Source: Paraspadella gotoi
Taxonomy: Eukaryota > Animalia > Chaetognatha
Reading direction: 5' to 3'
Length of the DNA stretch: 64,000 bases
Assembly (NCBI GenBank): GCA_051294375.1
Contig: CM119269.1
Location: 8,629,619-8,693,618 of the forward strand
The translations under genes were made by a program, and so were the position numbers. This document shows, in pieces, positions 51,601 to 55,452 of the stretch. The notes under the pieces are model-generated. The model was not told the origin of the DNA. It saw only the letters and a program-made list of their open reading frames with translations, and did not search any database. Every line of letters begins with the position of its first letter. Position 1 is the stretch's first letter.

Positions 51601-54600
51601 TAATTTGTTTTTCCCTCGTTTTGTTTGTTGCTGCGATTGTGGTCATTGGATCGAGATTCCTTAGAGCTGCGATCGATGGTTATTGGTCATTGGTTATTGG
51701 TTATTGGTTATTGGTTATTGGTTATTGGTTATTGGTTATTGGTTAAGTTCAATTGTAACTTTCCTTTTCTCTTCCTTCCTTCCTCAGGTCGTTCAATGGC
51801 TGAATTATTTCCCTTCCAACATGACCCACGGCGAAACCATCTTCGAAGACTGTCGCCGTTTCGTGACGGGCAGCCCAGGCGTTCACCACGTGCGCCGGAT
51901 CGACGCCGAAACGGACGCCCTCCGGAAACACAAGATGGACCGAGTCAACGAAGTCGGCCTGATGTTCGACGAGACGAACGACTATTTCGTCAACGGCCTT
52001 TTAGGCGACGACGAAGACGGCGCCTTGCTCGTCATCAGCAACGCCATCACTCAGCTCGTCCCTTACTTTCGCAATCACGAGAAAAGGGAGACGGTGGGCG
52101 AGCAACTTCGCGGTCAAAACGTTTGCGGCAACGACGAGATTTACGCGTCGCTCGTTCCGCTGACGTACGCCGTCGCCGCGAGGTTCGTGTCTCTGCTGGA
52201 CGACGTCAAGTCCGCGATGGAGACGCTCGAGGCCGGGATTCAAATCTTCGAGATGTTCGAAGCGGAAAAGGACGACCTCTATCGAGAGAGGAATCATCTG
52301 CTCGAGGGAAGGATGTACAGAACCCTCGGCACGATGTATCGTGACATCGGGAGGCTGTGCGAAGCGAGGTTGTGTCATCGACGGGCCTTGGCGTTGATCG
52401 GGACGCATCGTGGGCATAACAGAGAGAAGGAGTTGGTCGCTTGTTATCTCGAATTGGGAGAGACCTGTCTGTATCTCGGCGGGAAGGGGGACGAAGACAG
52501 CGAGGCGTACTTTCGAAGGGCCAAGTTCCTCGTCAAGAATAACGAGGCGTTGAGGAAGAGGATATCTCTCAAGTTGGCCGACTGCTGCAGATTGGACGGC
52601 CGGTTCGAGGAGGCGTTGGCGTTGTTGGAGGAGGCGGAGAAGGACTGCGGTCTGGATGAGACCGACGACGCTCTGGCGGTCAAGATTAAAATCGGGATGA
52701 AGAAAAAAGTGGGGGAGATTAAACTCAAGGTTTGGATTAGAATTTGAGTGAAAAAAAATATTGATTTATTAATTTATTATTATAATTTTAGTATATATTC
52801 AAAGATAAAATTAATCGTGAAATAATATTTAAATGATGATGATGATTGATGATGATGATGATGATGACGACGAAGACGACAGTGATATTATTATTATATT
52901 ATCATTCGTTATTATTTATTTATTCATCCTTTTCAGACAATAAAAGATTAAAAAAATAAATTTTAATCACTCTATCACATCCTGTTCAGGAGGCACGGGC
53001 AGTGAAAGGCCTCTCACCACCCAGAGGCCTGGAAGGAAAGGGCCTCCTCCAGTTCTTCGAGGGAAAGTTCGCCCAGAGTCTTCAGTGCTTCCAAGAAGAG
53101 CTGCGCATCAAGAAGGACGCGCCTTTCTTCGAGATCGCAAGGCTTTGCAATCTGGTGGGGATGGTCTGTCTCAAGCTCGGGGATCACCCCAAGGCGCTGG
53201 TCGTGTTTCGACGAGCGATCGACAGGATGGATCGCGCGGGTGAGTTTTCGGGTTTTGTGATTGACGGTTGTGAGTTTCGGTTCGTCGTGTTTTGGTGAAA
53301 ATTAGGTCGGAGAAAACTGTGTCAATCGTGCCCGTTAAGAATCACAAAGGAATTTTTAATCAAACAATTGGTCATTTTGCATTTAACTAATTTTTTGTAC
53401 CGAAATAAAAATTTAAATTGTCAGCTGATTTACATTTGACAAACGTGAAAACTTTGTACCGTACTGAAAAATTAATTTGTATTGTCATTTTGTGATATTT
53501 CCTCCGCTACATTTTTTGGACATGAACCAGATTTAAAACCAAACTTTATATTTCGCGGTTTAATGACATTCCTTACGATTGATGTCTATGATTATGCCGC
53601 TGACTATGCTCCACAAATTCCAAATTTTTTGCCCCTTCTTTCCAATCCACCCTCGATCCGCCCAACTCCCCCTCAACCGGCGCAACTCCCCCCATACCTC
53701 CCGTCCTCCAAGACGGTCGCGTGGATGGCGTCGTCGCCTTCTCTTCACCCATCACGGCGGCGTCGTGGAACGGCGTCGGCATCTGCTTCTTGAAGAGAGG
53801 CGAGCCGACAACGGCGGCCAAACACTTTGAGAAGAGCTTGAAGATCCTTCGGAGTCTGCACGGGGAAGAAGACCGACATCCCGACGTCAAACGGGTCGTC
53901 GAAAACCTCGAGATGGCGCGGGTGCGTTGTTGGAATTTAACCATCTTATAATTTGTTTTTGTTCCGTCTCGGTGCGCTCAAACACAATTTTAAATTGAGA
54001 CATAATAAATGTTAAATGTATTTTGAACATCTTTACCATGAAATTATGAGTTTATTTTTTGCTACGGAGAGAATTGCTTTGTGATGACTGTCCTAAATAA
54101 TATATTTTTAAAAAGTTACGCGTTATACAAAAATTGTGATAATTTTCGCAATTTAAAGTTTATATTCTTCCCTGTGGTCGTATAGTTAGCTGACCTGACA
54201 GGGAATAGAAAATAATGAAGAGACAGTAATTATTGTTATGTGTTAAATGAGCAGAACCGTTCAATATAAGCAGTCCCTGAGCTTCGGATCAGGCTGTAAC
54301 ACCGTGTTACAGGCGGGTTAAGCGCCCCGTCCCTCTTAACTGCCAGACGACCACCGGGCTAGTACCCCGGACCTTTGGGTTGGGAGGCGAATGTCTTGCC
54401 TCCGGCACCAATGGCCGCTGATGAACGGTTGGTGGATTTTAGTCCACCACACATCCCCCCCTCCCGTAGGGAGAAGTCTGTTGCGTCTCTTCAGTGAATT
54501 GTTGTTGTTGGTGAAAAGTTCGTCACCAAGTTGAGGCATGTCGCCTGATGTGTTGTGGGCGGAAAGTGCATCGCCAGGTTGAGGCATGTCGCCTGAAAGT

Positions 54601-55452
54601 GTTGTTGTTGCTGTAGTGTTTGGAAGTCGGGCTCACCAATGAAGTGACAGTAATTATTGTTATGTGTTAATGACAGAACCGTTCAATATAAGCAGTCCCT
54701 GAGCTTCGGATCAGGCTGTAACACGGTGTTACAGGCGGGTTAAGCGCCCTGTCCCTCTTAACTGCCAGACGACCACCGGGCTAGTACCCCGGACCTTTGG
54801 GTTGGGAGGCGAATGTCTTGCCTCCGGCACCAATGGCCGCTGATGAACGGTTGGTGGATTTTAGTCCACCATAATATAAGGCATGATTTAAGAAAACCCA
54901 AAATTATTGCAATATGCAAATTAGGATGAAGAGCTCGGTATTGATAAATAATCAATATTAAATCGAAATAAATGTAGATAATTCGAATCATTGTCTGTAA
55001 TATAATTGATTTTATTTTTAGTTGATAACTTAAAATAAGAAACTCTGTGCCTTTTCTTTTTGTAGAGCCAAATTGCTGCGACGCCCCTCGACGCGGAGTC
55101 CGACGAGAAGCCAAACCTTTCCCCGGTCGAGAAAACTGACGAAAAGTCTGAAGCTCAAATCGACAAAAAGTCCGAGGCTACAACCGACAAGAAGTCAGAG
55201 GTTAAACCCGACAAAAAGGCAGAACCTCAAATCGATAAAAAGTCCGACAAAAAGCCAGAGGCTAAAACCGACAAAAAGTCTGAAGCTAAAACCGACAAAA
55301 AGTCTGAAGCTAAAACCGACAAAAAGTCTGAAGCTAAAACCGACAAAAAGTCTGAAGCTAAAACCGACAAAAAGTCTGAAGCTAAAACCGACAAAACTCG
55401 ATCATCGTCGGTCAAAGTCGTGGAACCAGAGCCCTTCGCTCTCTATCATTAA
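48662..55452 (+). CDS. Patatin-like phospholipase with C-terminal TPR repeats and a charged repeat tail; exons 48662-48781, 48994-49158, 49931-50209, 50446-50730, 51149-51259, 51788-52729, 52990-53239, 53713-53921, 55066-55452
   Basis: The spliced frame contains ILSLDGGGVK|GI (oxyanion loop), FDMIVGTSTGG (catalytic Ser), APIYF and YVDGGVGANCP (catalytic Asp). TPR-like helices follow (YRTLGTMYRDIG, YLELGETCLYLG, CNLVGMVCLKLGD, WNGVGICFLKRGE..A..HFEKSL), then (DKKSEAKT)n. All junctions are GT-AG and phase-compatible. Confidence 0.88.
51462..51550 (+). ncRNA. Degenerate twister ribozyme type P5 (family C, element about 51347-51560)
   Basis: cgt GA GGA(T1) CAGCCG(P1) U^AA GCC GC(T2) C..P3..G CCUG(G) U UCC(T1) AA GC(T2) CAGG. 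Mismatches are present in P1, P2, P3 and P5. Confidence 0.5.
54270..54343 (-). ncRNA. Twister ribozyme type P5 (family B, 3' LTR), predicted cleavage U54320|A54319
   Basis: GCAGUU(P5) aag AGG(P2) GA CGG(T1) GGCGCU(P1) U^AA CCC(P2) GC(T2) CUGUAACA-cgg-UGUUACAG(P3) CCUGA U CCG(T1) AA GC(T2) UCAGG(P4) GACUGC(P5). Confidence 0.85.
54692..54765 (-). ncRNA. Twister ribozyme type P5 (family B, 5' LTR), predicted cleavage 54742|54741; one T1 mismatch
   Basis: Same as 54270-54343 except that the T1 strand reads CAG instead of CGG and one P3 loop base differs. Confidence 0.7.

Follow-up and report, generated by a model that had tools for sequence, protein, structure and literature searches.

Long terminal repeat (LTR) retrozymes have been described from plants as non-coding elements with a type III hammerhead ribozyme in each LTR, a primer-binding site (PBS) for tRNA-Met, LTRs of 300–400 bp, and circular RNAs of 600–1000 nt (Cervera et al. 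2016, PMC4918200). The Helenus TRIMs (miniature retrotransposons with terminal repeats) carry a tRNA-derived segment in the LTR, and their animal members are reported to have 4-bp target-site duplications (TSDs) and Gypsy-like PBSs, including ones for tRNA-Trp (Kojima 2024, PMC10886601). In the reviews consulted, twister ribozymes are tied only to non-LTR elements (PMC7229834, PMC7761336). Here we analyse a small LTR element of the chaetognath Paraspadella gotoi, which lies in a 64,000-nt stretch of contig CM119269.1 (assembly GCA_051294375.1, positions 8,629,619 to 8,693,618 of the forward strand). This whole stretch is called the window, and all positions below are counted within it. An original prediction, made from the letters alone, had proposed a candidate twister retrozyme at this place. 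We find that the element is a high-copy, non-autonomous LTR retrotransposon of the TRIM kind; its anatomy, fixed termini, many insertions, and sequence fit to the twister core are established. Our preferred reading, held tentatively and with a probability of roughly 45 per cent, is that a Helenus-type TRIM works here as a twister retrozyme and would release a 422-nt RNA monomer.

The two direct repeats of about 235 bp in the original prediction proved to be LTRs of 234 and 236 bp (Table 1). A repeat search placed them 422–424 nt apart, with 97.9 per cent identity over 236 nt and differences amounting to four substitutions and two indels. The repeat element proposed at 54216 to 54871 stands, with its outer end moved to 54873, where ninety-nine contigs of one sequencing run (X1, see below) leave it. 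The proposed TG..CA ends do not stand: on the minus strand the family reads TA...CA, with T at 54450 in 99.9 per cent of X1 depth, and the TG lies two bases inside the LTR end. The family thus departs from the TG...CA termini expected of TRIMs; TA starts are also found in two deposited Helenus LTRs (PMC10886601). Other structural marks of a TRIM are present, namely two LTRs, a length below 1 kb, no coding region, a PBS after the 5′ LTR, and a polypurine tract (PPT) before the 3′ LTR. Both the tRNA-type PBS and the PPT had been foreseen, and a comparison of the PBS with tRNA 3′ ends gave a match at 12 of 13 positions with bee tRNA-Trp (PMC10886601 Fig. S2; compared by eye, and with the tRNA of the bee, not of the host). 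The interior is non-coding as predicted, at 188 bp and not 186, and carries a 46-nt internal duplication (54503–54548 and 54551–54596, 85 per cent). Three short ATG open reading frames (ORFs) of 47–83 aa overlap the element; no protein-family search was made of them. In minimum-energy folds of the LTR and the monomer, a 9-bp inverted repeat helps to close the monomer fold. The proposed check for TSDs gave a partial match at this copy: no duplication is exact, and three of four (or five of six) flank bases agree. Among the loose contig ends listed for X1, an excess at 54876–54877 hints at an ATAT-like 4-bp target.

Table 1. Features of the element and of the intron that holds it, by position in the window.
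Feature	Position	Strand	Basis
Whole element (TRIM-like)	54216–54873	minus-strand polarity	658 bp, two LTRs, no protein
5′ LTR, 234 bp, TA...CA termini	54640–54873	-	Repeat pair; X1 loose ends at 54640 and 54873
3′ LTR, 236 bp	54216–54451	-	Repeat pair; X1 loose ends at 54216
PBS, tRNA-Trp type, 13 nt, 1 nt inside 5′ LTR end	54626–54638	-	Sequence
PPT, 12 purines, 2 nt ahead of 3′ LTR	54454–54465	-	Sequence
Non-coding interior, 188 bp	54452–54639	-	Repeat and ORF analysis; folding z −0.7
Left flank, imperfect 4-bp TSD candidate	54212–54215	.	3/4 bases match 54874–54877
9-bp perfect inverted repeat around tRNA-like and twister module	54677–54852 (54844–54852 with 54677–54685; 54422–54430 with 54255–54263)	-	Minimum-energy folds
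Twister-like fold of the 5′ LTR, permuted as in type P5; predicted cut between 54742 and 54741; A-C mismatch in T1 at 54750	54691–54766	-	Descriptor and pair table
Twister-like fold, 3′ LTR; predicted cut between 54320 and 54319; general-base G 54331; L4 54288–54281	54269–54344	-	Descriptor and pair table; layout against PMC8501958 Table 1
6-nt self-complementary linker replacing P1	54321–54326 and 54743–54748	-	Dimer folding
Degenerate tRNA-like segment, 5′ LTR, Gly, anticodon CCC; box A-like 54832–54821, box B-like 54788–54778	54768–54840	-	ARAGORN, lowered threshold
tRNA-like segment, 3′ LTR	54346–54418	-	ARAGORN, lowered threshold
Predicted 422-nt monomer between cut sites	54320–54741	-	Cut-site positions
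Inferred intron of patatin/TPR gene, element antisense inside	53922–55065	+	GT/AG ends; TPR and patatin matches in flanking exons

A search of public sequencing runs listed fifteen, thirteen of which held part of the stretch; nine came from one organism and three studies, with 46–69 per cent of the sampled words. Four of the fifteen were examined in detail; one of them, X1, possibly derives from the sample used for the assembly. At this locus, contigs of X1 span both junctions. Others depart from the element into unrelated flanks at 54640 (n = 132), 54216 (n = 35), 54873 (n = 99), 54874 (n = 48), 54876 (n = 34), and 54877 (n = 46). The loose ends at 54640 and 54873 recur in X5 and X9, so copies with fixed termini are dispersed in all three runs. 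Altogether, the number of distinct flanks that adjoin the element in the public runs is well above 100. Two outcomes that could have undone the original prediction, namely that no other copies exist or that the LTRs are an assembly duplication, are thereby set aside by the fixed termini with many flanks and by the loose ends and junction-spanning contigs. The interior has a summed X1 depth of about 1.0 million, compared with 179–229 for the flanks, a thousands-fold excess, though depth is no copy number. At a minimum the family occupies hundreds of sites, and the number probably runs to thousands. In X10, a run from another organism, a pair of 151-nt contigs with depth 4–5 may be contamination and was not counted; X11–X15 (share at most 0.04) provide no evidence and were left out of the counts. 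Two further observations on these runs were not used. X9 covers the downstream exon of the host gene and not the intron flanks, as would fit RNA, but contig depth cannot show expression. Nor can it show circles, whose junction would be identical to LTR sequence, and the ratio of LTR to interior is higher in X5 and X9 than in X1.

The fold that each LTR offers is twister-like, with the permutation of type P5 (Rfam RF02684). A complete permuted twister had been predicted in each LTR. Twister-like folds do lie on the minus strand of both, and completeness holds for the 3′ LTR alone, the 5′ LTR having one T1 mismatch. All pairs assigned within the 3′ LTR are canonical or G-U; its catalytic A and G, its loop L4, and its two pseudoknots are preserved intact. 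P5 comprises 7 bp, P3 8 bp with the conserved C-G closing pair, and P4 5 bp; of the pseudoknots, T1 has three Watson–Crick pairs plus the A-A and T2 has two pairs. The conserved positions are present as well: the scissile U:AA (the colon marks the cut; N:A then A in twisters), the general-base G followed by A ahead of T1′, and the L4 adenines. Seven of nine L4 letters are identical to those of Schistosoma mansoni twisters, and both differences are compensated by their partners (PMC8501958 Table 1). A relaxed twister descriptor found two matches in the window, one in each LTR, and none when the LTR was shuffled 100,000 times with its dinucleotides preserved, a contrast that overstates significance because the descriptor was written post hoc. 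As predicted, the ribozyme-like fold shares the strand of the PBS and PPT, and the tRNA-like segment described below lies on that strand too. The cut positions of the original prediction are also retained, as predicted sites that bound 422 nt.

Evidence on variants comes from 40 of 116 variant rows, apparently those with a share of at least about 14 per cent in some run. Within the twister core these fall at the tip of P3 (54304, 54305, 54725), at the terminal P5 G-U, which becomes A-U at 54344/54766 (43–61 per cent in three runs at 54344), and, at low depth, at 54745–54751; a T1 change at 54707 is taken up below. The common ones are mostly structure-neutral. This pattern fits selection on the fold without proving it, the core being at least as dense in variable sites as the remaining LTR.

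The original prediction missed the tRNA-like segment in each LTR and, with it, the fit to the Helenus class. A 73-nt tRNA-Gly-like cloverleaf stops two bases ahead of P5. Exactly at its T-loop the family majority reads GGTTC (99.7–99.8 per cent of X1 depth, 54363/54785), the motif conserved in the box B of Helenus and a feature outside the ARAGORN score. The box A-like stretch agrees with Helenus TRGCY at three of five letters, and YGG is present. The present copy differs from the family at the GGTTC letter 54363/54785. Its two LTRs share two letters (54363, 54394, 54785, 54816) that are absent from 95–99.8 per cent of family depth, which places the copy in a minor sub-lineage, mobile despite its altered box B. 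The sole minus-strand run of four T's (T4, 54517–54514) is broken in 99.0–99.4 per cent of family depth in three runs, a loss compatible with what read-through by RNA polymerase III (Pol III) would need. The segment is likely a Pol III promoter. Overlapping tRNA-Leu and tRNA-??? calls by relaxed ARAGORN were treated as noise.

A twister retrozyme with this anatomy might move as follows. Pol III would start near 54840 in the 5′ LTR and could read through, because most family copies are without a T4 run on the element strand. Cleavage at both sites would then free the 422-nt RNA, for which the circular fold has a z of −2.7, compared with −1.3 for the other strand, and 54 per cent pairing (100 shuffles). 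By analogy with known retrozymes, a host RtcB-type ligase may circularise the monomer; ligation of this type has been tested in vitro for animal retrozymes (PMC7229834). Primed by tRNA-Trp at the PBS, a Gypsy-type reverse transcriptase would copy round the circle, restoring two LTRs without a terminal R region. Reverse transcription of a circular template with a Gypsy helper has been proposed for plant retrozymes (PMC4918200, PMC7761336). The PPT would prime the second strand, and integrase would insert the DNA with a short TSD. The circle is what ties cleavage to the retrozyme cycle, since a linear RNA cut at both sites would be left without an R region. No Gypsy helper sharing the PBS and PPT was present in the window, or in the metagenome and viral-contig collections that were searched with the PBS/LTR-end pattern. 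Twenty-three metagenome loci matched that pattern over 15–23 nt only, were mostly G+C-rich, and were taken as chance; viral contigs gave none.

A number of results weigh against this reading. Rfam returned no twister, twister-P5 included, either at the gathering threshold on the whole window or at E 10 on 54100–55000; this was the check set out with the original prediction. These scans also found no hammerhead in the LTRs and no tRNA in the element; their sole match, a P26 hairpin, was taken as chance. The fold is non-canonical in P1, P2, and P4. The 5′ strand of P2 is 3 nt long, and at best three pairs form, with a bulge, where four are standard; according to one review, altering the length of P2 in any way might disrupt the active site (PMC5408937). 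P4 is one pair too long, with A-U at the top where a near-invariant G-C is expected. In place of a P1 stem there is a 6-nt linker with one possible pair in the monomer and six in a swapped dimer; P1 is reported to be dispensable in twisters (PMC5408937, PMC6154101). When about 2,600 natural twisters were tested, imperfections in P1, P2, and P4 were well tolerated and pseudoknot mismatches less so (PMC11662667), but those data cover type P1 only, whereas the fold here is type P5. The 5′ LTR of this copy carries the T1 mismatch, and a further T1 change, at 54707, reaches 14 per cent in X1 (1.6 per cent in X5, 0.9 per cent in X9). With pseudoknots unscored, the twister-compatible secondary structure is less stable than the predicted minimum, by 5–9 kcal/mol for a single copy and by 22–25 kcal/mol for two copies together in longer transcripts. 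The pairing probability of P2 is near zero, since the P2/T2 strand is taken up by T1′ and the linker. The cloverleaf, too, is weak when taken alone: it is called only at or below 84 per cent of the ARAGORN threshold, where 60 of 2000 shuffles (3 per cent) score equally and three of the six matches in the window fall outside the element.

These weaknesses leave room for an ordinary Helenus-type TRIM in which the twister is a passenger. A head derived from a short interspersed nuclear element (SINE) or an RTE element, with tRNA promoter and ribozyme, would have inserted in an ancestral LTR and would cut poorly or never, while normal linear RNA is copied with terminal redundancy. Both ingredients have precedents, in the SINE insertion into an LTR proposed as the origin of Helenus (Kojima 2024, PMC10886601) and in RTE elements headed by twisters (PMC8501958); by eye, P3 starts with the same five letters as five of the seven S. 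mansoni entries in Table 1 of the latter. A passenger would account for the short P2, the competing fold, and the silence of Rfam, and full double cleavage would strip the R region that ordinary strand transfer requires. It sits less well with the retention of all catalytic and pseudoknot positions, with compensating partners, and with common core variants in the family that are mostly structure-neutral. The hammerhead seen by eye in the same slot of two wasp Helenus families (see below) likewise suggests selection for cleavage. On balance we hold a passenger to be unlikely, if the most credible of the alternatives.

Somewhat more doubtful is a twister that does cut but serves as a substitute for a T-run terminator, setting the 3′ end of a linear transcript made by Pol III. 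RNAs with an uncut 5′ ribozyme would keep a 99-nt R region (54840–54742) and use standard LTR strand transfer, and circles would be a by-product or absent. The minus strand of the 3′ LTR indeed has no T4 terminator, Cassandra transcripts begin and finish inside the small-RNA segment of their LTRs (PMC10886601), the competing fold could keep cleavage partial, and the damaged ribozyme of this copy is the 5′ one. That last point loses force because the T1 mismatch is absent from the other LTR and must have arisen after insertion. Moreover, one template yields both LTRs, so that a new insertion has identical ribozymes and the 5′ one is made first, and circles are known from tandem twisters in animal cells (PMC7229834). 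Quite improbable, to our mind, is a plain TRIM whose structured, G+C-rich LTR resembles a twister and a tRNA by chance. The missing Rfam match, the descriptor fitted after the fact, the 3 per cent of shuffles that equal the tRNA-like score, and the three of six window matches outside the element would all agree with it. But the descriptor found nothing in 100,000 shuffles and no further match in 64 kb, the L4 differences are compensated in a loop with 7/9 identity, and the T-loop is exactly where the family majority has GGTTC, which did not enter the ARAGORN score.

A bolder model goes beyond the twister retrozyme reading. This TRIM would be driven by Pol III and would be the first LTR retrozyme of an animal as well as the first to use a twister, and its two LTR ribozymes would join into a domain-swapped dimer by sharing a palindromic P1. 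We regard this model as improbable in full, though worth stating. The linkers of the two LTRs could pair as a shared 6-bp P1, and this helix forms unforced in folding. Predicted energies of the swapped dimer and of two monomers were −192.4 and −193.1 kcal/mol from the tRNA start, −210.9 and −208.0 for the whole element, and −157.2 and −147.8 from core to core. About 5 per cent of random 6-mers are self-complementary, so the palindrome is only a modest clue. Amphibian hammerhead retrozymes offer a parallel, with a palindromic loop (tetraloop) and dimer action (PMC7229834). Separately, P3 (54294–54312, 54716–54734) is a near-perfect palindrome, which lets the arm in one LTR pair over 19 nt with that in the other. 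The minimum-energy fold predicted for a transcript with both LTRs includes this pairing, which would give a second route to a swapped dimer. If the dimer model is true, only full-length transcripts would cut and circularise, and the many solo LTRs would be nearly silent.

The host gene (49790–55400, plus strand) has patatin and tetratricopeptide repeat (TPR) domains, with a 24-nt coding tandem repeat at its end (55108–55427). The element lies antisense in its intron, and the ribozyme would therefore not cut the host pre-mRNA. Elsewhere in the window, 14536–16114 (plus strand) holds the broken pol end of an LTR retrotransposon, with an integrase zinc-binding domain and DUF5641, a combination typical of BEL/Pao elements. 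This fragment has no sequence in common with the element and is not taken as its partner. An interspersed repeat of about 250 bp has six full or partial copies (3372–3617, 4658–4904, 4981–5177, 11300–11484, 25818–25910, 48368–48540), two of them near-tandem, and is possibly a SINE or other small element; relaxed ARAGORN made a weak tRNA-Thr call in its region (4959–5031). Finally, a gene for an SLC22-like transporter contains a long degenerate tandem array of units of about 175–180 nt (58090–60650), whose frames are broken, possibly through assembly noise. Introns, the SLC22-like gene, and the DUF5641 retroelement are what would be expected of a eukaryotic host, most likely an invertebrate animal.

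Set against the Helenus elements of PMC10886601, the element is again a TRIM below 1 kb with GGTTC box B, PBS, PPT, and, in each LTR, a tRNA-like segment, although the likeness to tRNA is weaker here. Its tRNA-Trp class of PBS is common to the wasp Gypsy element Gypsy-32_NVi and to Helenus-2_SyJa. The text of that paper contains the word 'ribozyme' once, among the references, and describes none for Helenus. A search of the deposited Helenus sequences for five twister-type motifs gave no twister context, line breaks in the deposit being able to hide matches. Two wasp sequences in its DataS1, Helenus-2_SyJa-LTR and Helenus-2_SyUm-LTR, appear by eye to have, immediately behind their tRNA-like segment, the core of a type III hammerhead with three stems and long loop–loop complementarity, which goes unmentioned in the paper. 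Also by eye, the PBS of both elements is of the tRNA-Trp class, and their PPT/LTR junction looks like that of the present element. These sequences suggest that the slot after the tRNA promoter may have been filled by ribozymes more than once.

With type P5 twisters (PMC5408937, PMC6154101) the fold shares the order P5′-P2′-GA-T1′-(P1)-U:AA-P2-GC-P3-P4/L4-P5, the catalytic A and G, and both pseudoknots; it differs in a P2 one pair short with a bulge, a P4 one pair long with an A-U top, a 6-nt linker for P1, and a score below Rfam detection. The T-variant twisters of the S. mansoni Perere-3 RTE (PMC8501958) likewise sit in an animal retroelement and have a weak P1 and similar L4 and P3 letters. 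Those twisters, however, are of type P1 and occur singly, not as a tandem pair; each stands at the 5′ terminus of an autonomous element of the non-LTR kind, which has neither LTR nor PBS. Animal non-LTR retrozymes (PMC7229834, PMC7761336) resemble the element in their small ribozyme-bounded monomers (170–400 nt) and, through a palindromic loop, in dimeric action, but they are tandem repeats with type I hammerheads, stated to be without LTRs, PBS, or PPT. Our literature search, which left most subscription papers and Repbase uncovered, returned no twister LTR element, animal LTR retrozyme, Helenus ribozyme, or dimeric twister.

Should the twister retrozyme reading be true, the retrozyme life cycle would be independent of ribozyme class and host kingdom, twisters would gain a second natural role, and Helenus and retrozymes, two separately described TRIM classes, would be united. 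It would also raise the questions of whether LTR reverse transcription uses a circular template and whether twisters can be obligate dimers. The bolder dimer model, together with the apparent hammerheads of the wasp Helenus elements, would define a wider animal class with a tRNA promoter plus an interchangeable ribozyme in an LTR. Elements like this one may be under-counted because the fold escapes Rfam. The plant LTR retrozymes (PMC4918200) share with this element a non-coding body, a ribozyme or ribozyme-like fold in each LTR, a PBS, a PPT, the 4-bp TSD class (here an imperfect candidate), a monomer between the cuts, and a presumed Ty3-gypsy helper. They differ from it in that their hammerhead is here replaced by a P5-permuted twister-like fold, and the element has a tRNA-Trp PBS, LTRs of 234–236 bp, a 422-nt monomer, a tRNA-like segment, and an animal host. 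Cleavage and circles, demonstrated in the plants, are here predicted from sequence. In its sequence the element thus joins two known kinds, the Helenus-type TRIM and the LTR retrozyme, with the key biochemical step of the latter as a prediction.

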